Source: Actinomycetota bacterium (GTDB taxonomy: Bacteria > Actinomycetota > UBA4738 > CALAEC01). From it: a stretch of 24,000 nt of DNA. Of the stretch, positions 850 to 17,792 are shown piece after piece; position 1 is the first letter of the stretch; every line of letters begins with the position of its first letter. The notes under the pieces were generated by a model. That model did not search any database and was not told the origin of the DNA. It was given only the letters and a program-made list of their open reading frames with translations. A program made the position numbers and the translations under genes. The DNA is taken from contig DASZZY010000126.1 in assembly GCA_036260395.1 (NCBI GenBank), forward strand, positions 16,235 to 40,234, in the 5' to 3' direction.

Positions 850-950
850 ATCGAGACTGGCCTGCCCGAAGCCGTCGAGCGCCCGCGCCGCGTCCAGCGG
901 CGCATGCAGCCCCGGGAGTCAGCCGCAGTACGGCGAGAAGACCAGCGGCG

Positions 951-1820
951 TCATCGCTTCCATCCTTCCTTCGTCGGCAGGCCCCGACGCTGGAGCCGGG
1001 CGACCCGCGCGCGACGTTCGCGTTCCGGGTTTGGGACCGGCACGGCCTCCAGCAGCGAGCGCGTGTACGGCTGGCCGGGCTTCTGGAACACCTCGTGCGA
1101 GTGTCCCATCTCCACGATCTTTCCCCGGTTCATGACGGCCACTCGCTCGCAGACCAGCGGCACCAGCGAGAGGTCGTGGGTGATGAACAGGTAGGAGAGC
1201 TCCAGCCGCCGCTGGAGCGCCGCCAGCAGATCGAGGATCTGGGCGCGGATGGTGACGTCGAGGGCGGACACGGGCTCATCAAGGACCAGCAGGCGCGGCC
1301 GGGACGCCAGGGCCCGCGCGATCGCCACCCGCTGTTGCTGTCCTCCGCTGAGCGCGACGGGATAGCGGCGGCCGTGCTCGGGGAGGAGCTGAACGAGCTC
1401 GAGGAGCTCGTACGCTCGTATCCTCGCCTCGCGAGCGCTGGAGGCCAGCCCGTGGAACCGCAGCGGCTCCGCGATCAGCTCTTCGACGGACATCCGAGGG
1501 TTGAGGGAAACCCGCGGGTCCTGGAAGACGATTCCCACCTGTTTCCGGTACCACCTGAGGGCTCGCTGCGGGAGCGGGGACACATCCGCCCCGCGGAAGA
1601 GGATCTGGCCCCACGTCGGTTCGATCAGCCGAAGCACGCAGCGGGCCAGCGTGGACTTCCCCGACCCGGATTCTCCCACCAACCCCACGGTCTCGCCCTC
1701 GGCGATGGTCAGGGAGACCTCGTCGAGGGCCCGGACCCTGCCCACGGTGCGGCGTAGCACCGCGCCCCGCGTGATGGGATAGTCCTTCACCAGGCCCTCG
1801 ATCCTGAGCAGGGGGTTCAT
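951..1820 (-). CDS. Dpp/Opp/Nik-type ABC transporter ATP-binding protein (DppF/OppF-like)
   Basis: Walker [10 protein letters not shown], signature LSGGQQQR, Walker B LLVLDEP and a C-terminal oligopeptide-type tail ([12 protein letters not shown]). I prefer the ATG at 1818-1820 because it forms an ATGA overlap with the upstream ATPase stop at 1817-1819. The track start at 1835 is a GTG. Confidence 0.9.
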
Positions 1821-2632: not shown

Positions 2633-2642
2633 GCCGGCAACC

Positions 2643-3551
2643 TCATCGAAGCGTCGGATCCAGCACGTCTCGGAGGCCGTCGCCGAGCAGATTGAAGCCG
2701 AGGGCGACCACGGCGATGGCGATCCCCGGATAGATCATGAGCTGCGGGGCGCTGGCGAGGTAGCGCTGCCCCTCCGACAACATGGCGCCCCATTCCGGCG
2801 TTGGCGGTCGTACGCCGAGGCCGAGGAACGAGAGGGCAGCCAGGATGAGCAGGAGCTGGCCCGTGCGGAGGGTCGCCACCGCCAGGATGGGGCCGACGAC
2901 GTTGGGGAGGATGTGGCGCGTGGCGATCCGTCGTCCTGACAGCCCCAGCGCCCTGGCGCCCTCCACGAAGTCCCGCTCCCTCATGGCGAGCACGAGCCCC
3001 CGCACGAGGCGCGCGTAGCTCAACCAGTAGACGCCGATCATGGCGATGGCGAGGTTCAGCAAGCCCGGCCCGAGCACACCAGTGACCACCAGCGCGAGCA
3101 GCAGGGGCGGGAACGCCAGTAGAAGATCGACGATCCGCATGATGAGGCCATCGAGGATGCCTCCCACGTACCCGGAAAGCGTTCCCACCACGATGCCGAT
3201 CGTGAGGACCCCCGCACCGATCGCCAGGGTCGTGAGGACCGAAGTCCTCGCTCCCAACACCATCCGCGAGAACTCGTCGCGCCCGAGGTTGTCCGTCCCC
3301 AGCCAATGCTCAGCGCTCGGCGGAGCGTACCGGTTCATCACGTTCTGCCGGGCAGGGTCGTGCGGGGCGATCCAGGGCGCCAACAGGGCCACGAGCACCG
3401 CCAGCGTGACGATCACCAACCCGGCCAGCGCCGTGGGGTCCGCGACGAGTCGGCGGAGGAGGACGCCACGGGCCGGAAGCACGATCGACCGAGGCTCTGG
3501 CGCGGCCGGGTCGATCTGGAACGAGCGCCCCTCCGAGACATCGACGCTCAC
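2643..3551 (-). CDS. ABC transporter permease (DppC/OppC/NikC-like)
   Basis: 302 aa and multi-pass hydrophobic, with an EAA-type loop (FVEGARALGLSGRRIATRHILPN). The GTG start at 3549-3551 overlaps the upstream permease stop at 3548-3550 (GTGA). Confidence 0.9.
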   Translation of the reverse strand: MSVDVSEGRSFQIDPAAPEPRSIVLPARGVLLRRLVADPTALAGLVIVTLAVLVALLAPWIAPHDPARQNVMNRYAPPSAEHWLGTDNLGRDEFSRMVLGARTSVLTTLAIGAGVLTIGIVVGTLSGYVGGILDGLIMRIVDLLLAFPPLLLALVVTGVLGPGLLNLAIAMIGVYWLSYARLVRGLVLAMRERDFVEGARALGLSGRRIATRHILPNVVGPILAVATLRTGQLLLILAALSFLGLGVRPPTPEWGAMLSEGQRYLASAPQLMIYPGIAIAVVALGFNLLGDGLRDVLDPTLR

Positions 3552-4498
3552 CGAACCCCCCTACCCTGAGCCAACGCGACACGCGGATCCAGCCACAGAT
3601 AGACCAGGTCGACCACCAAGCTCACGAGGACGAACACCGTTCCGGAGAAGACCACGAAGCCCTGGAGCATGGTGTAGTCGCGCTGCCCGATGGCCTCGAC
3701 CGCGAGGCGCCCGATGCCCGGCCAGACGAAGATGATCTCGATCACCGCGGAATAGGCCAGCAGGATGGCGAATACCATGCCGACCTCCGTCACGACCGCC
3801 CCCAGAGAGTTCCGGAGGGCGTGGCGGATGACCACGCGCCTTTCCGGAACACCCTTCGCCCGGGCGGTCATGATGTAGTCCTCCCCGAGGACCTCGAGGA
3901 GGCTCGACCGCATCAGCCGGGCGACGACGGCGGCCTCGCCGAGCGCCAGCGCCAGCGCCGGGAGGACCAGATGCTGCAGTCCGTCGCGGCCGAGTGCGGG
4001 CAACCACTGCAGCTCGACTGAGAACACGATGATGAGCAGGAGGGCGAGCCAGAAGGCCGGGACGGAGGCCCCCAACAGTGCGGCGACGCGGAGGAGGTGA
4101 TCGAGGAGACTGTTCCGCCGGATCGCCGCCACAACACCGAGCGGAATGGCGATCACGAGCGTGATCAGCGTGGCGGCCGTGGCCAGCTGAAGCGTCGCCG
4201 GAAACCTCGACACGAGCTCGTCCGTCACCTCGCGGCCGGAGTAGTAGGACGTGCCGAGATCCCCGCGGACGGCCCCCCCGAGCCAGTCGAGGTACTGGAT
4301 CGGGAGCGGGCGGTCGAGCCCGAGCCGGGCGCGGGTCGATGCGAGCTCGGCCTGGTTGGGCTGTCGGTCGTGCACCCGAACGAAGTAGCTGTGTGCGGCG
4401 TCGCCGGGCGCCAGGCGCACGAGGAAGAACGCGAGCAGCGTGATCCCGATCCACGTGGGGATCAGGTACGCCACCCGGCGAGCGATGTACGCGACCAC
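3548..4498 (-). CDS. ABC transporter permease (DppB/OppB/NikB-like)
   Basis: 316 aa. The N-terminus MVAYIARRVAYLIPTWIGITLLAF is typical of this family, and it has an EAA loop (YIMTARAKGVPERRVVIRHALRN). GTG start at 4496-4498. Confidence 0.9.
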   Translation of the reverse strand: MVAYIARRVAYLIPTWIGITLLAFFLVRLAPGDAAHSYFVRVHDRQPNQAELASTRARLGLDRPLPIQYLDWLGGAVRGDLGTSYYSGREVTDELVSRFPATLQLATAATLITLVIAIPLGVVAAIRRNSLLDHLLRVAALLGASVPAFWLALLLIIVFSVELQWLPALGRDGLQHLVLPALALALGEAAVVARLMRSSLLEVLGEDYIMTARAKGVPERRVVIRHALRNSLGAVVTEVGMVFAILLAYSAVIEIIFVWPGIGRLAVEAIGQRDYTMLQGFVVFSGTVFVLVSLVVDLVYLWLDPRVALAQGRGVR

Positions 4499-4587
4499 GA
4501 CCTGGGCCCGGGGTCACCCCCTCGTCGCGCGACGATCGTCCGTGCCATCGCCGGCACGACCGACGACCGGACCGGAGCGTGCCCCGG

Positions 4588-6189
4588 TCACTCGGCGATG
4601 TACACCGTGTCGTATCGGTTGTGGAGTCCCGACGGCGCCGCCTCGAACCCCTCGACGTTCTGGTCGAGGACGTTCACGGTCACCACCCCGGCCAGCGGAA
4701 TCACGATCGCCTCTTGATCGATCAGGATGTGCAGCGCCTCCGCCGTAAGCTCCTTGAGCTCCTCTTCGTCCGGGGTCGCCACCGCCCGGGCGATCACCTC
4801 GTCGAACCGTCCTTTCGGGGCGAAGACCGGCTGGTACCCGATGTTGCCGAACAGGCCGATCGACCAGAACAGGAGGGCCGGGAGGAAGGCAGGGTTGGCG
4901 TCGTTCTGGCTCCCCTGCTCCAGCCACAGATCGCCGGCGAAGCGGTCGAGTCGAGCCTCGTAGGATGCCGTGTCCGGCGTCCTGATGATCTCGACATCGA
5001 TCCCCACCCGGCGTAGCTGGTCCTGGAGGAACTCCGGAACCGCCCCGTGCTCCTCAGCTGAGGGGAAGCCGGCAATCAGCTCGAGGCGCAACGGCTCCCC
5101 GCCCTTCTGCCTGATGCCGTCCGGCCCTGGCATCCAACCAGCTTCCTCGAGGAGGGCCTCGGCCTGCGCCGGGTCGTGCTCGTACCCCTCGATCCGACCG
5201 GCTGCCTCACCGAGCAAACGCGACGGCACCATGGTTTGCTCCCTGGCCGCGTATCCCTCGAACACGCCCTCCACGAGGGCCTCGCGGTCGATGGCGTACC
5301 CGATGGCGTGCCTCACGCGCTCGTCGGTGAGGATGGTGTAGCCAGATCTGCCGCTCTTGTTGAGGTAGATGGCCTCGTACGCGCCCGGCTCGCCGACCTC
5401 CACGGTGAACCCTCGGGCCTCCAGCTCCCCAACGGCATCGGGGGGGATGTCCAGCGCCATGTCCACCTCACGAGCCTCGAGCGCCAGTCGCCTTCCGTTG
5501 TCGTTGGGGATGAACCTGAATGTGATCCTTCGGAGGGTGGGAAGCTCGCCCCAGTAGTCGTCGTTCCGCGCGACCACGATCTCTTCCTGCGGTCGGTAGC
5601 TCACGAACTTGAAGGGCCCTGTCCCGACCGGATCGTCGTTGGGCTCCGTTCCCGGGGCCACGATGAAATAGTTCGGGTGCACCAGCTGCTGAGGGAGGCG
5701 CCGGTTCTCGAACATGGGGGTCACCTCGATCGTGTAGTCATCGATGATCTCGGTGGAGTCCTCACCGAGACCAGGGGTCCCCCCTCCGCCTTCGGCCACG
5801 AGGTTGAACGTGTGCTTCACCGCCTCCGCGTCGAACCGCTGCCCATCGTGGAACCGCACTCCCCTGCGCAGTTCGAACCGCCAGGTGTTCGGAGGCAGGA
5901 ACTCCCACGATGTGGCCAGGCTCGGCAGCACGTTGTACTGCGCATCCATCCGGACGAGCCCCTCGAAGATGTTGATGTTCAGCGGGTACAGCCCGATGGT
6001 TCCTTGATCGCTCCCCCCTCCGGACGTGTACCGGTCCGCGCCCGCTCCCACCACGTGCTCTTGCTCCTCGGGCGGCGCAGGCTGCGTGCCGCCGCGCCCG
6101 TCGGGTTGTCCTCGCATGCATGAGGCGACGAACACCAACAGCAGGCTGAGCGTGGTGATACCCGTTCGCAGCGTGTGGGACGTCCTCAC
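4588..6189 (-). CDS. ABC transporter substrate-binding lipoprotein, family 5 (DppA/OppA/NikA class)
   Basis: 533 aa. It has a signal peptide with a lipobox (LLLVFVASC). Its length and layout match family-5 binding proteins. GAGGAGGAGG lies 9 nt upstream of the GTG start at 6187-6189. The gene order (SBP, B, C, D, F) matches dpp/nik operons. Confidence 0.85.
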   Translation of the reverse strand: MRTSHTLRTGITTLSLLLVFVASCMRGQPDGRGGTQPAPPEEQEHVVGAGADRYTSGGGSDQGTIGLYPLNINIFEGLVRMDAQYNVLPSLATSWEFLPPNTWRFELRRGVRFHDGQRFDAEAVKHTFNLVAEGGGGTPGLGEDSTEIIDDYTIEVTPMFENRRLPQQLVHPNYFIVAPGTEPNDDPVGTGPFKFVSYRPQEEIVVARNDDYWGELPTLRRITFRFIPNDNGRRLALEAREVDMALDIPPDAVGELEARGFTVEVGEPGAYEAIYLNKSGRSGYTILTDERVRHAIGYAIDREALVEGVFEGYAAREQTMVPSRLLGEAAGRIEGYEHDPAQAEALLEEAGWMPGPDGIRQKGGEPLRLELIAGFPSAEEHGAVPEFLQDQLRRVGIDVEIIRTPDTASYEARLDRFAGDLWLEQGSQNDANPAFLPALLFWSIGLFGNIGYQPVFAPKGRFDEVIARAVATPDEEELKELTAEALHILIDQEAIVIPLAGVVTVNVLDQNVEGFEAAPSGLHNRYDTVYIAE

Positions 6190-6472
6190 GAGTGAAAACC
6201 TCCTCCTCGCCCCGGTACGCCGGTCGAGCCGATCGGTGTGCGGCGACCACGAGCGAAGGGAGGTGCCGGTGGCCGCCGATCCCCGTCCACGCTAGCCACC
6301 GCCGGTAATCGGAACAATTGGTGTGTTCGGCACATGACGTCGGTGGTACAACGGGTGAGCTTCGCATATAGCGTGCTGCTGACCCGTCGTGGCCACGTGT
6401 TCCCGGCGCTGGCTGCGCTGGAGGCGGGTTGTCGTACGCTAGGTGAGGCCCAGCCGTAGGAGGAGACGCACG
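6190..6472. promoter_or_regulatory. Divergent intergenic region between the binding-protein gene and the Cys-rich micro-ORF; probable bidirectional promoter/operator region
   Basis: This is the longest non-coding gap in the window (283 nt). It contains the window's most AT-rich patch (about 6306-6375). An imperfect inverted repeat CGGAACA-N7-TGTTCGG lies at 6310-6330 around a CAATTG core. A TATAGC -10-like hexamer lies at 6367-6372. No transcription start data are available. Confidence 0.3.
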
Positions 6473-6619
6473 ATGGCCACCGAACTTGGGATGATCGGCT
6501 GCGATTGCGGCTGCGACTGCTGCCAGCCGGGGCCGGCGAACGAGGCCGAGGAGCGCGAGCTGCTGCTGCACCAGAAGCGGCTGATCGACCAGCGGCTCGC
6601 GCAGCTGCAGGGGAACTGA
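6473..6619 (+). CDS. Unannotated 48-aa Cys-rich small protein (MATELGMIGCDCGCDCCQPGPANEAEERELLLHQKRLIDQRLAQLQGN)
   Basis: It is below the ORF-track size cut-off. The ATG is preceded by GGAGGAG with 7-nt spacing. 45 of 48 sense codons end in G or C, matching the genome's coding bias. Five Cys fall within 8 residues (codons at 6500-6523), followed by a heptad-like helical tail. It sits 47 nt upstream of the M50 protease gene. Confidence 0.6.
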   Translation: MATELGMIGCDCGCDCCQPGPANEAEERELLLHQKRLIDQRLAQLQGN

Positions 6620-6666
6620 CGGCCGCCCCGGATGCGCCCGGGGAGGGAGGATCTCCGCGGGCCGCC

Positions 6667-7365
6667 GTGGAGCGCCCGAGGGGGCGCACGCTGCCGTCGC
6701 TGCGGTTCCGGCTGGCGGGGATCCCCGTCAGCGTCGACCTGCTGTTCTTCGTCACCGCGCTGTTCCTCGGGACCTCCGCGGGGCGGGACGGCGCCTCGCT
6801 CCTCGTCTGGGTCGCGGTGGTGCTGACGTCCGTCCTGTGGCACGAGCTGGGGCACGCCCTCGCGCTCCGGGCGTTCGGGTACGCGCCGGTCGTCGAGCTG
6901 TGGGCCTTCGGCGGACTCACCTACCGCGCGTCCGGGAGCAGGACGCCGGCGGGCAGGTTCCTGGTCGTCACGCTCGCCGGCCCGGGGGCCGGGCTGATCC
7001 TCGGGGGGACCGTTCTGCTCTGGCTGCGCACGGCCGCGCCGCTCGACCTCGGTCCGCTTGCGGAAGCGGCCATCGTGGACGTCCTGTGGGTCAACATCGG
7101 CTGGGCGATCCTCAACATGATCCCGATCCTGCCGCTGGACGGCGGGAACGCCCTGGCGTCGTTCCTGGACCTTGTCACGCGCGGCCGGGGGATGCTCCCC
7201 GCCCGGGTGGTCTCCGTCCTTCTGGCGGGGGCCGGCGTAGTGGCCGCGGTCCTGGCCCGCGAGTGGTGGCTGGCGCTGCTGGCGGGGTTCTTCCTGCTGA
7301 CGAACGCCTCGGCGCTCCGCCGTCCGCGCCGTCCGGCGGCGCGCGCCGCGCCCGAGGAGCGCTAG
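6667..7365 (+). CDS. M50-family (site-2-protease type) membrane zinc metalloprotease
   Basis: HELGH motif (VLWHELGHALALRAFG) plus a second motif NMIPILPLDGG, in a polytopic hydrophobic protein. The track start at 6505 is a TTG inside the micro-ORF. The GTG at 6667 is the only in-frame start after the micro-ORF stop, but its Shine-Dalgarno sequence (GGAGG at 6646-6650) is 16 nt away, so the start is uncertain. Confidence 0.8.
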   Translation: MERPRGRTLPSLRFRLAGIPVSVDLLFFVTALFLGTSAGRDGASLLVWVAVVLTSVLWHELGHALALRAFGYAPVVELWAFGGLTYRASGSRTPAGRFLVVTLAGPGAGLILGGTVLLWLRTAAPLDLGPLAEAAIVDVLWVNIGWAILNMIPILPLDGGNALASFLDLVTRGRGMLPARVVSVLLAGAGVVAAVLAREWWLALLAGFFLLTNASALRRPRRPAARAAPEER

Positions 7366-8807
7366 CAGATCCGGGGGAGCGGGTCGCCGATCAGCATGTC
7401 GACGATCCGGGTGCCGCCGAACTCCGTCTTGAGGAGGACCAGCGTGGGCGGGTCGTCCTTGACCCGGCCGATCACCGCCGCGCCCTCGCCGAGCGGGTGC
7501 GAGCGCATCGCCTCGAGCGCCGCCTCCGCCCGAGCGCCATCGACGATGGCCACCAGCCGCCCCTCGCACGCCACGTAGAGCGGGTCGATCCCCAGGATCT
7601 CGCTCGCGCCGCGGACCTCGTCGCGCACCGGGATGGCGGACTCCTCGACGACCAAGGCCACGTTCGCCACCTGGGCCACCTCGTTGAGGATCGTGGCCAC
7701 CCCTCCGCGGGTCGCGTCGCGGAGGCACCGCACGCCGTCGGGGACCGCGTCGAGGAGCCGGCTCACCAGCCCGGCGAGCGGCGCGGTGTCCGACTCGACG
7801 TCGGCCTCGATGTCGAGCTCCCCCCGGGCCAGCATGATCGTGACGCCGTGGTCGCCGATCGGCCCGGAGACCAGCACGGCGTCGCCCGGGCGGACCTGTG
7901 CGGCGCCCAGCGTGACCGGCCGCTCGAGGACGCCGACCCCCGTGGTGTTCACGTACACGCCGTCGGCCTTCCCGCGGTTCACGACCTTGGTGTCCCCGGT
8001 CACGACCTGGACGCCGGCCCGTTCCGCCGCAGCGGCCATCGACCCCACGATCCGGCGCAGGTCCTCCACCGGGAATCCCTCCTCGAGGATGAACCCCGCC
8101 GAGAGGTACAGCGGCCGGGCGCCGGAGACCGCCAGGTCGTTCACGGTGCCGTTGACCGCCAGGTCGCCGATGTCGCCACCGGGGAAGAACAGCGGCGAGA
8201 CCACGAACGAGTCCGTGGTGAACGCCAGGCGCGCTCCGTCAACCGAGAACACGGCCTGGTCCTCGAGCGGCTCGAGGAGCGGGTTCCGGAAGTGCTCCAG
8301 GAACAGCGCCTCGACCAGCGTGTGGGTCGCCTTGCCGCCCGAGCCGTGCGCCAGCGTGATCCGCTCGTCTTTGATCCGGGCCTTCCGCCGGCGGGCCCGG
8401 TCGATCCGATCCAGCACCTGCTCCTCCCGGGACAGCACCCGTTCGCCGAGGGGGTACTGGGCCAGCTCCGGATCGTCGGCGTGCTCGCGCACCAGTCGCT
8501 CCACCCACTCCGCGGTCCGCCCCTCCGGGTCGGGGGCGGCGTCGCGGGCCCTGGCCCCTGGAGCCGTGGGGGGCTCGGGCGCCTCGATCTCGGCCTCGTC
8601 GGGGGCCGGCGGCGCCTCCGGCGCGTCGATGTCCCCGCGGTCCGGGGCCGGCGGCGCCTCCGGGGCCTCGGTGTCCGGCGTCGACGGCGCGGGGGGGGCC
8701 GGCGGCGCCTCGGTGTCCGGCGTCGACGGCGCGGTGGGCGCCTCGGGGAGCTCCTCGACGTCCGGAGCGCGGGGCGCCTCGGGGGCCTGGACCTCGCGCT
8801 CGGTCAT
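7362..8807 (-). CDS. hypE: Hydrogenase maturation carbamoyl dehydratase HypE with an N-terminal extension of about 146 aa
   Basis: From LAHGSGGKATH (residue 152) to the C-terminal PRIC it is colinear with canonical HypE. The ATG at 8805-8807 forms an ATGA overlap with the hypD stop, and GC3 stays high through the extension. An alternative internal start is the GTG at 8415-8417, with GGAGG 5 nt upstream. The 793-aa track ORF runs on spuriously into hypD. Confidence 0.9.
   Translation of the reverse strand: MTEREVQAPEAPRAPDVEELPEAPTAPSTPDTEAPPAPPAPSTPDTEAPEAPPAPDRGDIDAPEAPPAPDEAEIEAPEPPTAPGARARDAAPDPEGRTAEWVERLVREHADDPELAQYPLGERVLSREEQVLDRIDRARRRKARIKDERITLAHGSGGKATHTLVEALFLEHFRNPLLEPLEDQAVFSVDGARLAFTTDSFVVSPLFFPGGDIGDLAVNGTVNDLAVSGARPLYLSAGFILEEGFPVEDLRRIVGSMAAAAERAGVQVVTGDTKVVNRGKADGVYVNTTGVGVLERPVTLGAAQVRPGDAVLVSGPIGDHGVTIMLARGELDIEADVESDTAPLAGLVSRLLDAVPDGVRCLRDATRGGVATILNEVAQVANVALVVEESAIPVRDEVRGASEILGIDPLYVACEGRLVAIVDGARAEAALEAMRSHPLGEGAAVIGRVKDDPPTLVLLKTEFGGTRIVDMLIGDPLPRIC
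8604..8734 (-). repeat. In-frame tandem repeats encoding the Pro/Glu/Ala-rich part of the HypE extension
   Basis: A 27-nt exact repeat (cctcggtgtccggcgtcgacggcgcgg) occurs at 8666-8692 and 8708-8734, a 42-nt period. The 15-mer ggccggcggcgcctc occurs at 8604, 8646 and 8697. At protein level these read APSTPDTEAPPAPP / APSTPDTEAPEAPP plus further EAP/PAP units. Confidence 0.85.
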
Positions 8808-9928
8808 GCCCGGGTCGCCTCCCGCACGCGCTCCCGGGTGAACCGGCCGAAGTTGTAGTAGGCCGCGCAGGCGCCCTCCGAGGACACCATGCACGTCCCG
8901 ATCGGCGTCTCCGGCGTGCACGCCGTGCCGAACACCTTGCACTCCCACGGCTTGATGACGCCCTTCAGCACCTCGCCGCACTGGCAGGCCTTCGGGTCCG
9001 CCACGCGGACACCCGGCACATCGAACAGCACCTCGGCGTCGTGCGCCGCGAAGGTCTCCCGGACCTTGAGCGCCGAATGCGAGATGAACCCCAGCCCCCG
9101 CCACTCGAAGTACGGCCGGAGCTCCATGGTCTCGTTGATGGCCTCCAGCGCCCGCCGGTTCCCGTCCCAGGGGACCACGCGGGTGTACTGGTTCTCGACC
9201 TCGGCCCGCCCCTCGTCGAGCTGCTTCAGGATCATCCAGATCGACTGGAGGATGTCGAGGGGCTCGAACCCCGCCACCACCAGCGGCTTGTCGTAGTCGC
9301 GAGCGATGAACTCGTAGGGCCGGCAACCGATCACCGTGGACACGTGTCCCGGCCCGATGAACCCGTCCAGTCGCATGTCGGGCGAGTCCAGGATGGCCTT
9401 GATCGCCGGGATGATCGTCACGTGGTTGCAGAACACCGAGAAGTTGCGGATGCCCTCGGCGGCAGCTCGGAGCAGCGTGACCGCCGTCGACGGCGCCGTG
9501 GTCTCGAACCCGATGGCCATGAAGACGACCTTCCGGTCGGGGTTCTGCCGGGCGACCTTCACCGCGTCGAGCGGCGAGTACACCATCCGGATGTCGGCGC
9601 CCTGGGCCTTCGAGTCGAAGAACGACCCATGCCCGCCGGGGACGCGCATCATGTCGCCGAACGAGGTCATGATCACGTCCGGCTGCTCGGCGATGAAGAT
9701 CGCGTCGTCGACCCGGCCCATCGGGATCACACAGACGGGACACCCGGGCCCGTGGATCAAGGTCACGTTCTCCGGCAGGTAGTCCTCGAGCCCATGCTTG
9801 TAGATCGTGTGGGTGTGCCCGCCGCAGACCTCCATGATCTTGATGGGCCGGTTGGCGGCCAGCTCGGCGATCTCCCGGGCCACCCTCCGGGCGACCTTCT
9901 CATCGCGGTACTCGTCGACGAACCTCAT
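8804..9928 (-). CDS. hypD: Hydrogenase maturation Fe-S protein HypD
   Basis: 374 aa with all HypD hallmarks: VCGGHTHTI, GPGCPVCV, GFETTAPS, CQCGEVLKG and CTPETPIGTCMVSSEGACAAYY. The ATG at 9926-9928 overlaps the upstream stop (ATGA). Confidence 0.95.
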   Translation of the reverse strand: MRFVDEYRDEKVARRVAREIAELAANRPIKIMEVCGGHTHTIYKHGLEDYLPENVTLIHGPGCPVCVIPMGRVDDAIFIAEQPDVIMTSFGDMMRVPGGHGSFFDSKAQGADIRMVYSPLDAVKVARQNPDRKVVFMAIGFETTAPSTAVTLLRAAAEGIRNFSVFCNHVTIIPAIKAILDSPDMRLDGFIGPGHVSTVIGCRPYEFIARDYDKPLVVAGFEPLDILQSIWMILKQLDEGRAEVENQYTRVVPWDGNRRALEAINETMELRPYFEWRGLGFISHSALKVRETFAAHDAEVLFDVPGVRVADPKACQCGEVLKGVIKPWECKVFGTACTPETPIGTCMVSSEGACAAYYNFGRFTRERVREATRA

Positions 9929-10605
9929 GCCGTGGCTCCCATCTCCTCGAGCGCGACGTGGCTCAGCTCCCACAGGACGTGGTACACGGTGGTCTGGGCT
10001 TCCTGGATCCGGTGCACCGAGGAGGACGGCACGACGAAGAGGTGGTCGATCGTGTCGATCTCGGCCATCTTGCCGCCCTCGTATCCGGCCAGCCCGACCG
10101 TCAGCATCCCGCGCCGGGAGGCCTCCTCGAACGCCCGCACGAGGTTCTCGGAGTTCCCGCTGGTGGACAGGCCGACCGCGATGTCGCCGGCGCGACCCAG
10201 CGCCGCCAGCTGGCGGGCGAACACCACCTCGAACCCGATGTCGTTGGCCAGCGCCGTCACGACGGCGACGTCGGAGGTGAGCGACAGGGCCGGGAGCGGC
10301 CGCCGGCCGTCCCCCGGATGGGCGAACATCGCCGCCAGGTCGTGGGCGTCGGTGCTCGAGCCGCCGTTCCCGAACCCGAACAGCCGGGCCCCCGAGGCGA
10401 ACGCCCCGGCCATCTCCTCGGCGCACCGAGCCAGCCGCTCGCCGTCGCGCCGGAGGCACTCGTCGCGGAGCGCCACGACCTCGGCCGCCTTCTCCTCGGT
10501 GGACCGGCGGATGTGGTCCATGACCGCGTCGACGTTACGCTCCCCCGCGTAGAGGAACGGGTAGAGCGCCTCGACGCCCCCGGCGACGTTCTCGTCCCCC
10601 GACAT
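9925..10605 (-). CDS. GmhA-like SIS-domain protein, paralog 1 (motif-intact)
   Basis: 226 aa with GFGNGGSSTDAHD, LSTSGNSENL, LAGYEGGKMA and RIQEAQTTVYHVLWEL, colinear with phosphoheptose-isomerase-type SIS proteins. Its start ATG (10603-10605) shares one base with the hypC stop (TGATG). Confidence 0.8.
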   Translation of the reverse strand: MSGDENVAGGVEALYPFLYAGERNVDAVMDHIRRSTEEKAAEVVALRDECLRRDGERLARCAEEMAGAFASGARLFGFGNGGSSTDAHDLAAMFAHPGDGRRPLPALSLTSDVAVVTALANDIGFEVVFARQLAALGRAGDIAVGLSTSGNSENLVRAFEEASRRGMLTVGLAGYEGGKMAEIDTIDHLFVVPSSSVHRIQEAQTTVYHVLWELSHVALEEMGATA

Positions 10606-10832
10606 CAGCCCTGCACCACCGCGATCGCCTCCTTGGCGTGGACCAGGATCGTGTCGCCGACCCTGGCCTCGACCAGGGCCACGCTGACCTCCTCCTCGCT
10701 GACCCCGGTGTCCACGCGGGCCAGGCCGTCCCCGAGCAGCTCCATCACCGTGACCGCCACCGCCTCGTCGGAGCAGGTGATGCACACGTCGTCGTGGCAC
10801 TCGGGGACCTGGCGCGTGGGGGCCGGCCCCAC
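10605..10832 (-). CDS. hypC: HypC/HupF-family hydrogenase maturation chaperone, CxxC-type N-terminus
   Basis: ..ECHDDVCITCSDEAVAVTVMELLGDG..VSVALVEARVGDTILVHAKEAIAVV matches the HypC OB-fold core. I prefer the GTG at 10830-10832 (GGGAG 6 nt upstream, 17 nt after the preceding stop). The alternative GTG at 10785-10787 would give a canonical Met-Cys N-terminus. The track start at 10913 overlaps the upstream gene. Confidence 0.8.
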   Translation of the reverse strand: MGPAPTRQVPECHDDVCITCSDEAVAVTVMELLGDGLARVDTGVSEEEVSVALVEARVGDTILVHAKEAIAVVQG

Positions 10833-10849
10833 GGGGATCTCCCGGGCGC

Positions 10850-11470
10850 TCAGCGGATCACCTCCGGCTCCAGCACGCCTGGCTGCTCGAACAGGACGTG
10901 CACCAGCTCCCACAGCACGTGATACACGGTGACCTGGACCTCCTTGACCACCCGGGGGTCGTCGGAGGCCACCTCCAACACGTGGTCGGCACCGCTCCCC
11001 GCCACCTCTCCCCCGTCACCTCCGGTGAGGGCCACGGTGAGCAGGCCGAGCTCGCGCGCCGCCGCCAGGCCCCGAACCACGCTGGGGTCGCGGCCGTCGC
11101 CGGAGACTCCGAGCGCGATGTCGTCGGGGCCGGCGAGCTGACGGAGCTGGTGAGCGAAGATCTCCTCGAACCCCTCGCGCCCGGCCACCCCGGTCACCGT
11201 CGCGATGTCGTTGGTCAGGGAGATGGCCGGCAGGGCCCGCTTCCCGACGATCACCGGGTGGACGAACTCCACCGAGACGTGTTGCGCGTCGGTGCTGGGC
11301 GCGCCGGTCCCGAACACGAACAGCCGCCCTCCCCGGTGGAACCGCACGGCCATCTCGTAGCAGGCTCGGGCCACCCGGTCGGCGTCGGTGGCCACGGCCC
11401 GGCCGGGTTCCCTTCGCCGGGCGAAGGCCTCCTGGACCGCGGATGCCAGCCGGTCCGAGACCCGCCTCAT
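10850..11470 (-). CDS. GmhA-like SIS-domain protein, paralog 2 (degenerate motifs)
   Basis: 206 aa with the same architecture and the same C-terminal TVYHVLWELVHV block as paralog 1. GNGGS is replaced by GTGAPS, and STSGNS by VSGDGRD. ATG at 11468-11470; an alternative GTG is at 11498-11500. The 447-aa track ORF is a spurious upstream extension through def. Confidence 0.75.
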   Translation of the reverse strand: MRRVSDRLASAVQEAFARRREPGRAVATDADRVARACYEMAVRFHRGGRLFVFGTGAPSTDAQHVSVEFVHPVIVGKRALPAISLTNDIATVTGVAGREGFEEIFAHQLRQLAGPDDIALGVSGDGRDPSVVRGLAAARELGLLTVALTGGDGGEVAGSGADHVLEVASDDPRVVKEVQVTVYHVLWELVHVLFEQPGVLEPEVIR

Positions 11471-11523
11471 GGGGTGATGGTGGTCGAGCGCGCCACACAC
11501 ATAGATGTGGAACCACTCTACCC

Positions 11524-12024
11524 CTAGCGGTAGACCTTGCGGGCGAACAGGTCGGACGGGGCGGCCACCCGATCGAGGATCAGGAGCCCGTCGAGGTGAT
11601 CGACCTCGTGGAGGGCGGCGCGGGCCTCGAAGCCCTGCATCCGGTACACGCGGACCGACCCGTCGGGGACGAGCCCGCGGAGCGCGACGCGGCGGGGACG
11701 GCGGACGTTGGCGGTCAGGTCGGGCACCGAGAGGCAACCCTCCCGAAGCACGTCCGGGTCGCCGGCCTCGAGGATCTCGGGGTCGAACAGCGACACGAGG
11801 CCGTGCGCGGTGTCCGCCCGCCGGTGCCCGCGGACGTCGAGGACGAACGCCCGCACCGGCTCGCCGACCTGCGGGGCGGCCAGCCCCACGGTGGCCGGCA
11901 TGGCCCGCATCGTGTCGACCAGGTCGGCGCTCAGCCGGCGCAGATCCTCCGTGACCTCGCCGACCGGCTCGGCGACGCGCTTCAGCACCGGATCGGGGTA
12001 TCGGACCACCGGCCGGACCGCCAC
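11524..12024 (-). CDS. def: Peptide deformylase
   Basis: 166 aa with the three PDF motifs: GLAAPQVG, EGCLSVP and HEVDHLDG. GTG start at 12022-12024, 6 nt after the ACT-protein stop. Confidence 0.9.
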   Translation of the reverse strand: MAVRPVVRYPDPVLKRVAEPVGEVTEDLRRLSADLVDTMRAMPATVGLAAPQVGEPVRAFVLDVRGHRRADTAHGLVSLFDPEILEAGDPDVLREGCLSVPDLTANVRRPRRVALRGLVPDGSVRVYRMQGFEARAALHEVDHLDGLLILDRVAAPSDLFARKVYR

Positions 12025-12030
12025 CGGCCG

Positions 12031-12555
12031 TCAGAGGGTCTCGACCTCGACGGGCTCCAGCCGCGCGTCGACGCCGAGGTCCCGGGCCGCGGACAGCACC
12101 GCCCCGTGCAGGTCCTCGGCGGGAACCGACTCGGGGACCGCCACCTCGGCGATGATCGCGTAGATCGGCTCGGGCCCCGCCGTCCGCCGGCACGAGAGGT
12201 CGGTGATGTTCACCCCCCGCTCGGAGAACAGCCCGGCGAGCGTGGCCACGATCCCGGGGCGGTCCGAGCCGTAGGCGGTCAGGACGTGGGTGGCCCGGGG
12301 CCGTTCCGGGGCGCCGGCCTCGACGTCGGCCACGTGGACCCGGACCCCCACGTCGGCCGCCGCCCGCTCCAGCGAGGCCCGGACCTCGTCAGGGTCCCCG
12401 GGCGCGTCGACGACGAGCATCATCGCGAAGTGGCCACGCAGGATCGTCGACGAGACGTCCTCGAGGTTGCCGCCCAGGTCCTGGAGCGCGCCGGTCAGCG
12501 CGGCCACGATCCCCGGCCGGTCCGCGCCGATGGCGGTCACCGCGTAATGCGCCAC
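12031..12555 (-). CDS. Tandem ACT-domain protein (GcvR-like / ACT regulatory protein)
   Basis: 174 aa with two copies of the ACT signature (G.DRPGIVAALTGAL.. and GSDRPGIVATLAGLF..). GTG start with no obvious Shine-Dalgarno sequence. Confidence 0.7.
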   Translation of the reverse strand: MAHYAVTAIGADRPGIVAALTGALQDLGGNLEDVSSTILRGHFAMMLVVDAPGDPDEVRASLERAAADVGVRVHVADVEAGAPERPRATHVLTAYGSDRPGIVATLAGLFSERGVNITDLSCRRTAGPEPIYAIIAEVAVPESVPAEDLHGAVLSAARDLGVDARLEPVEVETL

Positions 12556-12594: not shown

Positions 12595-12891
12595 CTAGGA
12601 GATGCCCGCCGCCGGACCGGCCCCGTCGTCGAAGAGCGAGAGCTGGACGGGGGCCTCCGGCGCCTCGTCGCCGTTGCGCTCGGCACGGGCGGCGTCCGGG
12701 CCCCACACCGCCTCGAGCAGCGTGGCCGGCGCGTCGAGGTTCGGCTCGGGACGGGGGCCTCCCCAGAGCGCGTCGACGTGCTCGGCGAGGCGGCCGACGG
12801 GATCGTCCCCCCGGCGCTCGGCGGCCGGCGCCCCCCGCCACACCGCTTCGGTGATGGACGGGTCCCATCTCGCGGATGCCGTCTCGCTCAT
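12595..12891 (-). CDS. Small acidic hypothetical protein (98 aa) with internal repeat and C-terminal QLSLF motif
   Basis: The ATG at 12889-12891 is preceded by GGGAGGAGG (5-nt spacing), and GC3 is about 90 percent. There is an internal duplication (ITEAVWRGAPAAERRGDDP / LLEAVWGPDAARAERNGDEAP). QLSLF is encoded at 12631-12645. The longer 211-aa track ORF overlaps gltX and is not supported. Confidence 0.6.
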   Translation of the reverse strand: MSETASARWDPSITEAVWRGAPAAERRGDDPVGRLAEHVDALWGGPRPEPNLDAPATLLEAVWGPDAARAERNGDEAPEAPVQLSLFDDGAGPAAGIS

Positions 12892-12985: not shown

Positions 12986-14407
12986 TCAGCCGGACGACGC
13001 CCGCAGCCGTGCCAGGGTCCGGTCGCGGCCCAGGAGCGCCATCGACTCGAACAGCGGCGGCGACACGGTGGAGCCGGTGACGGCCGCCCGGACCGGCTGG
13101 AACGCCTTCCGCCCCGAGAGGCCGGAGGCCTCCTGGAGCTCCCGCATGGCGGCGGTGATCGATGCCACCGTCCACTCCGGGAGGGCCTCCAGGCGCCCGA
13201 CGACCTCCAGAAGGTACTCGGCCTGCCCATCGAGGAGCTTGCGCGCCTTGTCGTCCGCCTCGACGTCCTCGAAGAGGAACCGCACGAGCGACGCCGCCTC
13301 GTTCGTCGTGCGGCTCCGCTCCTGGACCAGCGGGGCCGCCGCGGCCACCCGGTCGGGCTCCGGCTCGATCCCAGCCCGCCGGAGCGCCTCTTCCAGCAGC
13401 TCCGCGAACCGATCCGCGGGCGCCTCGCGGATGTAGTGGCCGTTCATCCAGTCGAGCTTCTCGCGGTCGAACGCGGCGGGGTTCCGCGACACCCGCGCCA
13501 GGTCGAACGACTCGATCAGCTGCTCCCGGCCGAAGAACGTGGTGTGGTCGTCGTACGACCATCCGAGCAGCGCGAGGTAGTTCACCATGGCCTCCGGCAG
13601 GTACCCCTGCTCGCGGAACCACTCCACGGACACCGAGCCGTGGCGCTTGGAGAGCGGCTGGCGATCGTGGCCCACGATCAGCGGGAGGTGCCCGTACGCC
13701 GGCGGTTGCTCCACGCCGAGCGCTTCCAGCAGCAGCAGCTGGCGCGGCGTGGACGAGAACAGGTCCTCGCCGCGGATGACGTGGGTCATCCGCATCTTCC
13801 AGTCGTCGACGGCGGCGGCCAGCAGGTACGTGGGGAACCCGTTGCTCCGGAGGATCACGAAGTCCTCGATGTCGGACGCCGGGAACGTGGCCTCGCCGCG
13901 GACGAGGTCGTGCACGGTCACGTCGCGCCCGGGGGTGGCGAAGCGCCACGCGAACGAGCGGCCCTCGGCCTCGCGGGCCTTCCGCTGCTCCTCCGACAGC
14001 CCCCGGCATCGCTGGTCGTAGCGGGGAGGCTCCCCGCGGGCCAGCGCCTGGCGGCGGCGCTCCTCCAGCTCCTCGGGGGTGCAATAACACCGGTACGCGC
14101 GCTCGTCGCCTGCGAGCCGCTCGACCGTGTCGCGGTACAGCGACAGCCGCTCGGTCTGGCGGTACGGGCCGTACGAGCCGCCCACGCCGGGGCCCTCGTC
14201 CCAGTCGATCCCCAGCCAGCGGAGCGACTCCTGGATCGCCTGCACCGAGTCCTCCGTCGATCGGGTCCGGTCGGTGTCCTCGATCCGGAGCACGAACGTC
14301 CCGCCGTGGCGGCGGGCGAAGAGCCAGTCGTACAGCGCGGTCCGGGCGCCGCCCACGTGGAGGTAGCCCGTCGGCGCCGGCGCGTACCGGACGCGGACCT
14401 CATCCAC
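12986..14407 (-). CDS. gltX: Glutamyl-tRNA synthetase
   Basis: Class-I signatures are present: [16 protein letters not shown] (HIGH-type) and PLSKRHG (KMSKS-type). The remainder is colinear with GltX. The track start at 14437 is a TTG. I prefer the GTG at 14405-14407 ([14 protein letters not shown]), which overlaps the upstream stop by 8 nt. Confidence 0.9.
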
Positions 14408-15161
14408 CCTCGACCACCCCGTTCTCGAGCACGCCAACGCCCTCGACCTCGACCTCGACGGTGTCTCCGGCCTTCAGCGGGCCGACCCCGGCCGGCGTGC
14501 CGGTGAGGACCACGTCGCCGGGAAGAAGCGTGATGGTGCGGGAGATGAACGCCACCAGCGCGGCCGCGGAGAACAGGAAGTCCGAGGTCCGCCCGGACTG
14601 GCGGGTCTCGCCGTTGACCCGAGCCTCGACGCCGACGTCGGCCGGGTCCAGCTCGGTATCGATCCACGGGCCGAGCGGGCAGAACCCGTCCGACCCCTTG
14701 GCCCGCGCCCACTGGCCGTCCTGCTTCTGCCACTCGCGGGCCGTGACGTCGTTGGCGCAGGTGTACCCGAGGACGTACCGCAGCGCGTCGGCCTCGTCGA
14801 CCCTCCGGCACAGCCGACCCATCACCACCGCGAGCTCGGCCTCGTGGTCCACGCGGCCGGCGCCGGGCGGGAGGGGGATGGGGTCCCCGGGCCCGATCAC
14901 CGAGGTGGCTGGCTTGAAGAACAGGATCGGCGACTCCGGCACCGGGTTCCCGAGCTCCGCCGCGTGCCCGGGGTTGTTCCGGGCGACGGCCACGATCTTC
15001 GAGGGGATCACCGGCGCCAGGAGCCTGACGTCGTCGGCCGGGACCTCCTCACCGGTGGGGATGGGTTCCTCGAAGAACGTCCCCCGCAGCGCCCGGATCG
15101 TGGGGCCCTCGCGGACGCCGGTGGCGATGCGGTCGCCGTGCCGGAAGCGGACCAGCCTCAC
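14400..15161 (-). CDS. Fumarylacetoacetate hydrolase (FAH) family protein
   Basis: 253 aa with typical FAH-fold blocks: [40 protein letters not shown] and [16 protein letters not shown] start 3 nt after the ilvE stop. Confidence 0.85.
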
Positions 15162-15164: not shown

Positions 15165-16091
15165 CTACTCGACGTACTCGACCCAGGGCTCGTACCGGTC
15201 GATGTCGCCCTTGACCGCCGCGAAGAACGTCTGCTGGATCTCCTTGGTGATCGGGCCGCGCCCGTTCGAGGCCAGGACCCGGCCGTCGATCTCGCGGATC
15301 GGCGTCACCTCCGCGGCGGTCCCGGTGAGGAACGCCTCGTCCGCGGTGTACAGGTCGGCACGGAGCAGCTTGCGCTCCACGACCTCGTAGCCCATGTCGC
15401 GGGCGATCGTCATCGCGGCGTCGCGGTTGACCCCCAGCAGGATCCCCGCCGACTCCGGCGGCGTCACGAGGACGCCGTCGCGGACGATGAACAGGTTCTC
15501 GCCGGTGCCCTCCGCCACGTCGCCGTCCGAGGACAGCATGATGGCGTCGTCGTAGCCGGCCTTGATGGCCTCCACCTTCGCCAGCCCGGAGTTGATGTAC
15601 TGGCCGGTGGCCTTGGCCTGGGCCGGGAGGACGTTGGCGTCGGGGCGCCGCCACGACGAGATGAGCAGCCGGGCGCCGTTCTCCAGGCAGTCGTCGCCGA
15701 GGTAGGTCCCCCACGGCCACACCCCGATGGCCACGTTGACCGGGGCGTACAGCGGGTTGAGCCCCATCTCGCCGTAGCCGTGATAGACGATCGGGCGGAC
15801 GTAGCACGCCTTCAGGCCGCTGGCCCGCACGGTGTCCTTGGCGGCCTCGACGAGCTCGTCAAGCGAGTACGGGATCTCGATCATGTAGACGGCCGCGGAC
15901 CGGAACAGCCGCCGGATGTGGTCGGTGAGCCGGAAGATGCCCGGGAGCCCCCTCGACGTCTCGTAGGCCCGGATGCCCTCGAACACGCCGCTGCCGTAGT
16001 GCAGCGCGTGGGTCAGCACGTGGACCTTGGCGTCCTCCCACGGGACGAGCTTCCCGTCCATCCAGATCTTCTCGACAGGCTGAATCGGCAT
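15165..16091 (-). CDS. ilvE: Branched-chain amino acid aminotransferase (fold type IV)
   Basis: 308 aa: MPIQPVEKIWMDGKLVPWEDAKVHVLTHALHYGSGVFEGIRAY.., and later EGTGENLF and GILLGVNRD. The ATG at 16089-16091 has AAGGAGG 7 nt upstream. The track ORF start at 16166 is a spurious extension. Confidence 0.9.
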   Translation of the reverse strand: MPIQPVEKIWMDGKLVPWEDAKVHVLTHALHYGSGVFEGIRAYETSRGLPGIFRLTDHIRRLFRSAAVYMIEIPYSLDELVEAAKDTVRASGLKACYVRPIVYHGYGEMGLNPLYAPVNVAIGVWPWGTYLGDDCLENGARLLISSWRRPDANVLPAQAKATGQYINSGLAKVEAIKAGYDDAIMLSSDGDVAEGTGENLFIVRDGVLVTPPESAGILLGVNRDAAMTIARDMGYEVVERKLLRADLYTADEAFLTGTAAEVTPIREIDGRVLASNGRGPITKEIQQTFFAAVKGDIDRYEPWVEYVE

Positions 16092-16211
16092 CCCGCGTCC
16101 TCCTTCGTCCGACCTGGCGTCCGGCCTCGGCGGCGGCCCCGGCGCTGACCCGCCTAAAGCGTACACCGCCGCCTCGGGCCCCGACCGAGCGCGGCCTGCG
16201 GGGCGCCGGGG

Positions 16212-17792
16212 TCAGTCGCCGACCGCGATCGAGCGGGCGGTCTTCATCCCGACGGCCTCGACGATCTCCTCGAGCGTCGGTGCGGGGATCGGGCTGTCGA
16301 CCGTCAGCCCCATGAGCGCCAGCCCGCCGGCCTCGCGCCTGCCGACCTCCATGCTGGCGATGTTGATCCCCGCCCGGCCGAGGATGCTTCCCACCTTGCC
16401 GATGACCCCCGGGCGGTCCTCGTAGAGGAAGAACGCCATGTGATCGGCGGGCGCCATGTCGACGTCGAACCCGTACACCCGGACCAGGCGCTCGGCGTCC
16501 CGCTTCCCGACCAGCGTCCCGGCCACCGCAACGTCGCCGGCCTCCGTCTCGGCGCGCAGCGAGACGAGGTTCACGTAGTCCTCCGACTCCATCGACCGGC
16601 GCTCGGACACCGCCAGGCCGCGCTCCCGGGCGATCACCGGGGCGTTGACGTAGGAGACCGGCTCGTCCACCACGCCCGTCAGCATGCCTTTCAGCGCGGC
16701 CAGCGTGAGCACCTTGGTGTCGAACTCCGCCACCCTGCCGAGGTAGTCGGCCGAGACGCTCCGCAGCGGGGCGTCGGCCAGGCCGGCCAGGATGCGGCCC
16801 AGCCGCTCCGCCAGCGGCAGGAACGGCCGGACCTGCTCGGCGACCTCGGTGGCCGCCACGTTGACGGCGAACGGCACGAACTCGCCGCGGAGCGCCAGCC
16901 GGACCATCTCGGCGATGGCCAGGCCGGCCTTGTCCTGGGCCTCGCGGGTGGAGGCCCCGAGGTGCGGCGTGACCACGACCTGGTCGAGGGCGAACAGCGG
17001 GTGGTCGGTGACCGGCTCCTCGGCGAACACGTCGAGCGCCGCGCCGGCCAGCCGCCCGTCCCGCACGGCCTGCTCCAGGGCCGCCTCGCTCACGATGCCG
17101 CCGCGCGCGGTGTTCACCAGCCGGGCGCCCGGCTTCATCAGCCCCAGCTCGCGTGGCCCGATCAGCGCCTCGGTCTCGGCGGTGCGTGGCAGGTGGATCG
17201 TGACGAAGTCGGCCTGGACCAGCAGGGCCCCGAGGTCGGGCATCAGCTCGATGCCCATCTGCCGCGCCCGCTCCCTGGACACGTAGGGGTCATAGGCGAT
17301 CAGCCGCATGCCGAACGCCAGCGCCCGCTGGGCGACCATGGTCCCCACCCGCCCCAACCCCACGATCCCCAGCGTCTTGCCGTGGAGCTCCGTGCCCTGG
17401 AACCGCTCGCGCTCCCAGGTGCCGGACCGGAGCGCCTGGTCGGCGCGCGGCAGGTTCCGGGCCATGGCCAGGAGGAGGGCCATGGTGTGCTCGGCCGCCG
17501 AGAGGACGTTGGACTGCGGGGCGTTCACGACCATCACGCCGCGGCGCGTGGCGGCGTCCACGTCGACGTTGTCGAGCCCGATCCCCGCCCGGCCGACGAC
17601 CTTGAGGTTGTCGCCCGCCTCGATCACCGCGGCGTCCACGCGGGTCTGCGACCGGACCACCAGGGCGTCGTACGGGGCGATGGCCTCGGCCAGCCCGCCG
17701 GAGGCCAGCTCGGTGCGGACGTCGACCTCGAAGTCCTGTCCGAGCACCGACAGCCCGCGCTCGGAGAGCTTCTCGGTGACCAGGACCTTCAT
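16212..17792 (-). CDS. serA: D-3-phosphoglycerate dehydrogenase (long form with ASB and ACT domains)
   Basis: 526 aa with the NAD-binding motif GIVGLGRVGTMVA, a 2-hydroxyacid dehydrogenase catalytic region and a C-terminal ACT domain (DRPGVIGKVGSILG). Confidence 0.92.
   Translation of the reverse strand: MKVLVTEKLSERGLSVLGQDFEVDVRTELASGGLAEAIAPYDALVVRSQTRVDAAVIEAGDNLKVVGRAGIGLDNVDVDAATRRGVMVVNAPQSNVLSAAEHTMALLLAMARNLPRADQALRSGTWERERFQGTELHGKTLGIVGLGRVGTMVAQRALAFGMRLIAYDPYVSRERARQMGIELMPDLGALLVQADFVTIHLPRTAETEALIGPRELGLMKPGARLVNTARGGIVSEAALEQAVRDGRLAGAALDVFAEEPVTDHPLFALDQVVVTPHLGASTREAQDKAGLAIAEMVRLALRGEFVPFAVNVAATEVAEQVRPFLPLAERLGRILAGLADAPLRSVSADYLGRVAEFDTKVLTLAALKGMLTGVVDEPVSYVNAPVIARERGLAVSERRSMESEDYVNLVSLRAETEAGDVAVAGTLVGKRDAERLVRVYGFDVDMAPADHMAFFLYEDRPGVIGKVGSILGRAGINIASMEVGRREAGGLALMGLTVDSPIPAPTLEEIVEAVGMKTARSIAVGD

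Follow-up and report, generated by a model that had tools for sequence, protein, structure and literature searches.

Here, we characterized the hydrogenase maturation (hyp) genes within a 24,000-nt stretch of an Actinomycetota bacterium (contig DASZZY010000126.1 of assembly GCA_036260395.1, positions 16,235 to 40,234; the whole stretch is hereafter called the window), in which hypD and hypE lie behind two genes for SIS-fold proteins (SIS-2 and SIS-1) and one for a HypC-like protein (HypC*). Together they make up an intact maturation cluster of the conventional kind, situated on the margin of a hydrogenase island in an ordinary setting. Very probably, positions 1-11470 of the window represent the distal part of a group 1h-related [NiFe]-hydrogenase island that ends 53 nt downstream of a serA-ilvE-FAA hydrolase-gltX-ACT-def array. 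The original prediction, made from the sequence alone, had described seven chained genes with gaps of -4 to 53 nt that continue a co-directional array beginning at serA; the array is real, and the junctions were measured as +6, +53, +17, -1, -4, and -4 nt. Genes were picked by third-position GC content and start-codon context, in DNA of 66-76% GC (mostly ~70-75%), and the seven are as follows.

12031-12555, minus strand: 2xACT protein, identified by Pfam and NCBIfam; gap to def, +6 nt.
11524-12024, minus strand: def, identified by Pfam and NCBIfam; gap to SIS-2, +53 nt.
10850-11470, minus strand: SIS-2, 206 aa, HEX2031422; gap to the HypC-like gene, +17 nt.
10605-10832, minus strand: HypC-like protein (HypC*), 75 aa, GTG start at 10832; overlap with SIS-1, -1 nt.
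9925-10605, minus strand: SIS-1, 226 aa, HEX2031420; overlap with hypD, -4 nt.
8804-9928, minus strand: hypD, product 100% identical to HEX2031419; overlap with hypE, -4 nt.
7362-8807, minus strand: hypE, 481 aa.

The reported lack of a hydrogenase or hypA/B/F within 24 kb was borne out by tblastn with representative queries, which gave no match to HhyL, HhyS, HypF, HypA, HypB, canonical HypC or the endopeptidase in the window. Of the explanations first offered, that the partner genes lie elsewhere is the right one. The proteins of the window run consecutively from HEX2031412 (the ATPase at 1817-2632) to HEX2031435 (tryptophan dioxygenase) on a 43,929-bp contig of a metagenome-assembled genome (MAG). 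A search with the large subunit of a relative brought up HEX2031393, a 638-aa nickel-dependent hydrogenase large subunit. It is likewise recorded on a 43,929-bp contig with the same MAG label, and its accession is 19 numbers ahead of that of the ATPase. It therefore appears to be encoded on the same contig as the window, ~17-20 kb beyond the left edge, and the window holds no hydrogenase because it ends before the large subunit gene. The L1 (TSRACGVCGGVH) and L2 (DPCMPCTTH) motifs of HEX2031393 fit RxCGxCxxxH and DPCxxCxxH, respectively. The protein is 40% identical to canonical HhyL, and its best match among solved structures is HofG of group 1h (5AA5, 479 bits), with all others at or below 183 bits. 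By these sequence matches, HEX2031393 is assigned to a sister lineage related to group 1h, and it may belong to the recently named group 1l (PMC13554262).

The same genes recur in hydrogenase loci of relatives. A HypD scan of species-representative genomes (GTDB) yielded at least 80 actinomycete loci at 79-85% identity. When neighbourhoods were counted by tblastn in the 59 loci with full 10-kb flanks around hypD, the SIS-2/HypC-like/SIS-1 trio was found within 10 kb of hypD in 56, a [NiFe] large subunit in 55 and both together in 52; the trio stood without a large subunit in four. A canonical hypC is near hypD in all 80 GTDB loci listed, and def, ACT, gltX and M50 genes are near hypD in none of them. 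Closer relatives, at 88-92% HypD identity, came from a search of a large protein collection. All five lineages examined carry the exact pentad of the window, SIS-HypC*-SIS-HypD-HypE, with the same stop/start overlaps, and in none does a canonical hypC directly precede hypD. In three of these loci (L085, L089, and L090), genes for a small subunit, a 635-aa large subunit, an endopeptidase, NifU and PadR are found immediately upstream of the pentad. In L085 and L090 the pentad is followed by a nickel-type substrate-binding protein (SBP) with two permeases and then by hypF, while in L089 the contig breaks off shortly past hypE. L083 and L086 have hypF ~4 kb from the pentad and no structural genes adjoining it. 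Thus, hypF occurs near the pentad in four of the five close lineages, and a nickel importer in two of the three with adjacent hydrogenase subunits. In L088, a canonical HypC (TIGR00074, 82 bits) is encoded beyond hypF. The gene order that had been taken as unusual is therefore what the closest relatives normally show beside their hydrogenase genes; the original prediction had itself allowed that the order might prove to be a well-annotated standard arrangement with nothing novel in its context, and this is what L085, L089, and L090 present.

Several other genes of the relatives' loci were noted. Two protease-like genes are found at L085 2751-3506 and 5611-6108, and at the equivalent places in L089 and L090; one product is of the HycI family and the other, of 251 aa, has a sub-threshold match to hydrogenase maturation proteases. 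A TPR protein and a number of conserved proteins that belong to no family are encoded in the same three loci. A CbiA/ParA/ArsA-like P-loop ATPase and a 146-aa protein adjoin hypF or the canonical hypC (L089 12804-13520; L086 16935-17270; L088 10770-11105). As they occupy the place expected of hypB, they may be a substitute for HypB.

Assembly of Fe(CN)2CO takes place on HypD, a [4Fe-4S] scaffold protein, and HypE is an ATP-dependent dehydratase that bears the cyano group on its C-terminal PRIC cysteine and depends on HypF for carbamoyl loading. The HypD of the window matches TIGR00075 with 519.8 bits (cutoff 192.8) and has the CGGHTH, GPGCPVC and GFETT motifs as well as the C-terminal Cys cluster ([4Fe-4S] ligands). 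Its HypE matches TIGR02124 with 458.8 bits (cutoff 251.6) over residues 149-481, and contains AIRS and AIRS_C domains and PRIC at 478-481. As in relatives, hypE begins with an ATG that shares a 4-nt overlap with the stop of hypD. Every catalytic motif named earlier is intact, in agreement with the view that the two genes are not a decaying remnant. The called HypE has 481 aa vs. 385-391 aa in the closest relatives, with ~90 extra Pro/Ala-rich residues. This N-terminal Pro/Ala/Glu-rich stretch (8440-8807, minus strand) consists of APEAPPAPSTPDTE repeats that stem from a 42-nt tandem repeat at 8653-8742 (2.1 copies). Since the exact 481-aa form has no entry in the protein collection, the NCBI annotation of hypE probably uses a shorter start. 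By analogy with established Hyp biochemistry, HypE would receive a carbamoyl group from HypF, encoded outside the window, dehydrate it to a thiocyanate on the PRIC cysteine and pass the cyanide to iron on HypD, which would build Fe(CN)2CO with a HypC-family partner. The nickel ATP-binding cassette (ABC) importer would provide nickel for the later HypA/HypB step, and the completed cofactor would enter the large subunit that appears to be encoded to the left of the window.

On the other side, the cluster abuts the housekeeping array, the remaining genes of which are these.

16212-17792, minus strand: serA.
15165-16166, minus strand: ilvE.
14400-15161, minus strand: FAA hydrolase.
12986-14437, minus strand: gltX.
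12595-12891, minus strand: open reading frame (ORF) of 98 aa.

The closest def homolog (81% identity) occurs in L093 and L094. These loci keep the relative order of the window (helix-turn-helix regulator, 103-aa ORF, aminotransferase, GYD, serA, ilvE, FAA hydrolase, gltX, ACT, def) at 69-85% identity, with a CorA gene interposed. Beyond def, L093 has an amine oxidase, a toxin-antitoxin pair and an acetyltransferase; in L095, ACT-def is kept and followed by a chromate transporter. Conservation thus marks ACT-def as a housekeeping pair that ends a conserved array and is not part of the hyp module. Because relatives keep the serA...gltX-ACT-def array and have no hyp genes with it, those of the window stand at a synteny breakpoint and fill a variable region beyond ACT-def. 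The junction between def and SIS-2 is real and not a MAG chimera, since an independent Logan assembly (L001) repeats gltX-ACT-def-SIS2-HypC*-SIS1-hypD at 99-100% identity. The description of a hyp core embedded in a housekeeping operon consequently holds in the physical sense, as the genes do come after gltX-ACT-def, but the reading of an orphan within that operon does not, given that ACT-def occurs without hyp genes in L093-L095. Co-transcription across the 53-nt def/SIS-2 gap is possible and is not a conserved feature. A promoter and terminator scan gave nothing usable on operon boundaries in this 72% GC DNA, and an Rfam search found no RNA element. A kynurenine-pathway pair (19841-22209, minus strand) lies upstream of the serA array and comprises tryptophan 2,3-dioxygenase (21400-22209) and a probable kynureninase. 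Of the two, kynureninase alone is seen in L093/L094, in partial form at the locus edge, and the pair is unrelated to the hyp genes.

Three other explanations for the locus were considered. The adjacency of def and ACT could be functional, for example if the deformylase supplied a formyl- or formate-derived one-carbon unit for the CO ligand and were co-transcribed with the SIS/hyp genes. Indeed, def and SIS-2 are on the same strand and 53 nt apart, the uninformative scan placed no terminator-like site between them, and the CO ligand of aerobes derives from a formyl donor via HypX (PMC12134894). Nonetheless, we regard this as very unlikely, since ACT-def is followed by unrelated genes in L093, L094, and L095, and the link from def to CO was rejected on that synteny. 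Moreover, def, ACT and gltX are near none of ~90 related hyp loci save the near-identical L001, which makes the def/hyp adjacency lineage-specific. A relocated, unexpressed or decaying second hyp copy is suggested by the ~25 kb that separate the cluster from the structural genes and by the absence of a canonical hypC next to hypD; intact catalytic motifs throughout, translationally coupled overlaps exactly as in relatives, a HypD that is 88-92% identical to theirs, and the absence of frameshifts render this highly improbable. Among the matches listed, the HypD scan gave no second hypD from this MAG, although the MAG itself was not among the searchable genomes.

We give next to no credence to the remaining alternative, that HypD, HypE and the trio handle cyanylated or carbonylated iron for a non-hydrogenase purpose in a genome without hydrogenase. 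In its favour, hydrogenase, hypF, hypA and hypB genes are all missing from the window, and in four of the 59 full-flank loci no large subunit accompanies the trio within 10 kb. Against it, a large subunit is recorded for what is apparently the contig of the window, genes for a nickel importer lie alongside, and HypE needs HypF for its carbamoyl loading. The identical pentad is also found inside the hydrogenase loci of the closest relatives, and the earlier suggestion of a HypCDE plus SIS module working outside hydrogenase maturation is unsupported. Assignment of the cluster to a hydrogenase island is itself weakened by several points. The placement of HEX2031393 on the same contig leans on an equal length of 43,929 bp, a shared MAG label and accessions 19 apart. 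For this genome, hypF, hypA, hypB, a canonical hypC and the small subunit are inferred rather than seen, and the source is a MAG, which may be incomplete. The window importer is 45-52% identical to that of the relatives, whereas HypD is 88-92% identical, and it may be a paralogous replacement. Finally, the role of the SIS/HypC* trio is a matter of inference.

The HypC-like protein deserves separate consideration. HypC* matches Pfam PF01455 (HupF_HypC) with 33.0 bits against a cutoff of 28.5, and scores 16.5 bits with TIGR00074, below the cutoff of 48. Its earlier label of hypC therefore needs correction, as the protein passes the Pfam model but fails TIGR00074 and has no N-terminal Cys. The hallmark of HypC/HybG/HupF is an iron-ligating Cys directly after the initiator Met (MC[LIV]xxP), and HypC* has instead an internal motif, PEC-x4-C-I-T-C-S-D. 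Approximately 74 orthologs keep (P)EC-x4-C-[IV]-T-C-[SA]-D near the N-terminus and LVHAxEAI near the C-terminus. In the orthologs, Thr, His, Ser, Ile, Asn or Gly frequently precedes the central Cys, so that translation could not start there. A search of 1.84 billion representatives gave 331 clusters of the family, and among the top 150 representatives examined for the motif it was present in 138, with the Cys at a median position of 21 and at position 2 or lower in only one of the 138. HypC* resembles canonical HypC/HybG/HupF (TIGR00074) in size class and in the Pfam match, and its C-terminal LVHAxEAI aligns with the canonical LVHVGFAI. Unlike canonical HypC, in which the N-terminal Met-Cys is essential, it carries an internal C-x4-C-x2-C ~20 residues in, and it also occurs as the C-terminal part of SIS-2 fusions, a position that rules out an N-terminal Cys. 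From these sequence features, HypC* is best classed as a distinct HypC subfamily with a predicted OB-fold, and not as canonical HypC. One natural protein of 172 aa (P0505) joins a canonical HypC (MCLGVPG...) to a HypC* domain (GDVCITCSD...), which suggests that HypC and HypC* act side by side, neither replacing the other.

Another feature of these loci is that HypC* is constantly sandwiched between two GmhA-like SIS proteins, to which it is at times fused. SIS-1 and SIS-2 match Pfam SIS_2 (60.5 and 54.5 bits, respectively) and fall below the 209.45 cutoff of TIGR00441 (gmhA) with 131.7 and 101.0 bits. The top PDB matches of SIS-1 are GmhA and then DiaA. Active-site columns were counted over 74 SIS-1 and 71 SIS-2 orthologs in the numbering of B. 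pseudomallei GmhA. The Ser-Thr-Ser phosphate loop is kept in SIS-1 (S-T-S-G-N-S) and lost or degenerate in SIS-2. At the equivalent of His64, SIS-1 has Asp, Gln, Glu or Ala in 72 of 74 sequences and SIS-2 an invariant His, and at that of the catalytic Glu68, SIS-1 never has Glu (74/74; mostly Leu, also Ala and Met) and SIS-2 always does. The equivalent of Gln175 is kept in SIS-1 and replaced by Lys or Arg in SIS-2, while that of His183 is mostly kept in SIS-1 and is an invariant His in SIS-2. Over its 71 orthologs, SIS-2 shows invariant H64, E68, H71, and H184. Neither protein combines the catalytic and zinc residues (His64, Glu68, Gln175, and His183) with the phosphate loop in one chain. Both proteins share with GmhA (sedoheptulose-7-phosphate isomerase) and DiaA the SIS fold and their best PDB and NCBIfam matches. 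They differ from GmhA in that SIS-1 is without the catalytic Glu and zinc-binding His and SIS-2 without the phosphate-binding Ser/Thr loop. Judged by these residues, both appear degenerate as catalysts, with losses that complement each other, and like DiaA they may serve to bind proteins instead of acting as enzymes.

Natural fusions were found of SIS2::HypC* (nine cluster representatives), HypC*::SIS1, the triple SIS2::HypC*::SIS1 (P0487) and canonical HypC::HypC*. Some of them are possibly gene-calling artefacts. Since the fusions are several and have in-frame linkers, they argue that SIS-2, HypC* and SIS-1 constitute one physical accessory unit. The trio is a known, functionally unassigned accessory of high-affinity hydrogenase loci. 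Its role as a heptose isomerase is unlikely; it would most likely act as an auxiliary holder of iron or of a cofactor intermediate beside canonical HypC. Speculatively, the unit could hold or protect an iron intermediate in air, in the manner of HupF/HoxL with HupK/HoxV, or alternatively contribute the CO ligand. A more specific proposal, which we consider unlikely, is that of a three-protein complex dedicated to the maturation of aerobic high-affinity [NiFe]-hydrogenases, in which both SIS proteins hold the C-x4-C-x2-C arm of HypC* and which delivers or protects an Fe-CO/CN intermediate under O2, or makes CO. In such a complex, one SIS protein would retain its pocket for a phosphosugar and its paralog a metal site of the His/Glu/His type, and the CO ligand would come from a phosphorylated aldehyde metabolite, a job done by HypX in some Proteobacteria.

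The left flank of the cluster comprises an ABC importer operon, an NMT1-like gene and two convergent plus-strand genes, with the following features.

951-6189, minus strand: nickel-type ABC importer operon of five genes.
4588-6189, minus strand: importer SBP; best match NikA (TIGR02294), 202 bits, below the cutoff of 393.
3548-4498 and 2643-3551, minus strand: importer permeases; NF045470, 361.3 bits (cutoff 350), and NF045474, 303.8 bits (cutoff 300).
1817-2632 and 951-1835, minus strand: importer ATPases, below nickel-specific cutoffs.
25-849, minus strand: NMT1-like gene, 274 aa; 49% full-length identity to the gene after the nik permeases of L085, L090, and L091.
6473-6619, plus strand: small Cys-rich ORF, 48 aa, with a strong GGAGGAG ribosome-binding site; encodes MATELGMIGCDCGCDCCQPGPANEAEERELLLHQKRLIDQRLAQLQGN.
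6505-7365, plus strand: M50 metalloprotease; Peptidase_M50, 38.9 bits, HELGH motif present.

An M50 protease and an ABC importer are indeed present on this side, as first described, but the importer is not a neutral housekeeping neighbour, as both permeases pass nickel cutoffs. From these matches, it is a putative nickel-type (Nik/Opp2) importer. It shares with NikABCDE/Opp2 importers the five-gene layout and two permeases above the NCBIfam nickel cutoffs, and departs from them in an SBP and ATPases below nickel-specific cutoffs, so that its substrate is a prediction. A homologous SBP with two permeases comes after hypE in L085 and L090-92; inverted repeats upstream of the nik SBP of the window are weak. 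In L085, L090, and L091, the NMT1-like gene is followed by a MIase-like gene and then by hypF. The leftmost gene of the window thus prolongs the synteny with the hydrogenase islands of relatives, and synteny with L085 and L090 predicts that hypF should lie just left of the window.

The M50 gene runs towards hypE, and the two genes overlap by 4 nt at the hypE stop. The M50 product has a weak NCBIfam match to a daptide intramembrane metalloprotease (26 bits; cutoff 300). The 48-aa product encoded just upstream has a Cys-rich head followed by a helical tail and matched no family, including those of Pfam; possible roles include metal binding and, in relation to the M50 protease, those of an anti-sigma-like partner or a substrate. 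No related hyp locus examined has either gene, and the two represent an insertion specific to this lineage that separates hypE from the nickel importer.

As an orphan cluster, the locus is of limited weight, being a maturation cluster in a window that cuts off the structural genes. The question of trio function concerns the whole family and not this locus alone. The labels "HypC" and "GmhA/phosphoheptose isomerase" in high-affinity hydrogenase loci mislead, because HypC* is without the defining N-terminal cysteine and neither SIS protein has a complete GmhA active site. With its tight conservation, its translational coupling to hypD/hypE and its occasional fusions, the trio offers a genetically tractable candidate for steps of oxygen-tolerant cofactor assembly in bacteria that consume atmospheric H2. 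The presence of gmhA in such loci has been noted with no role assigned (PMC11879354, PMC5900883, PMC3505973, PMC5445863, PMC3231954). The original prediction had pointed to gmhA-like genes without assigned role in group 1h/5 loci; the first four of these papers and the trio in 56 of 59 loci bear this out. GmhA goes unmentioned in a 2025 review of [NiFe]-cofactor assembly, in which "isomerase" refers only to the domain of HypX itself (PMC12134894).

Two known systems invite comparison. For O2-tolerant hydrogenases of Proteobacteria, the auxiliary scaffolds HoxL/HupF and HoxV/HupK, credited with holding or protecting Fe(CN)2CO (PMC12134894), likewise represent an extra HypC-family protein and a partner scaffold encoded beside the hyp genes of aerobes. 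In the trio, however, the partner is a SIS pair and not a large-subunit-like protein, and the analogy is a functional one only. Group 1h/5 (Hhy/Hof, actinobacterial-type) loci, such as M. smegmatis MSMEG_2702-2720, the R. eutropha H16 PHG hof/hyp genes and those of S. avermitilis and Acidobacteria, differ from the present locus in three respects: the large subunit of its contig is only 40% identical to canonical HhyL, with TSRACGVCGGVH rather than TSRICGICGDNH at L1; its clade has no canonical hypC before hypD, whereas all 80 listed GTDB loci have one nearby; and its module lies ~25 kb from the structural genes, abutting housekeeping genes. What they have in common with it is the association of hypD, hypE and HypC-family genes with one or two GmhA-like SIS genes (PMC5900883, PMC11879354, PMC3505973, PMC5445863), and in 52 of the 59 actinomycete loci the trio is found together with HhyS/HhyL.

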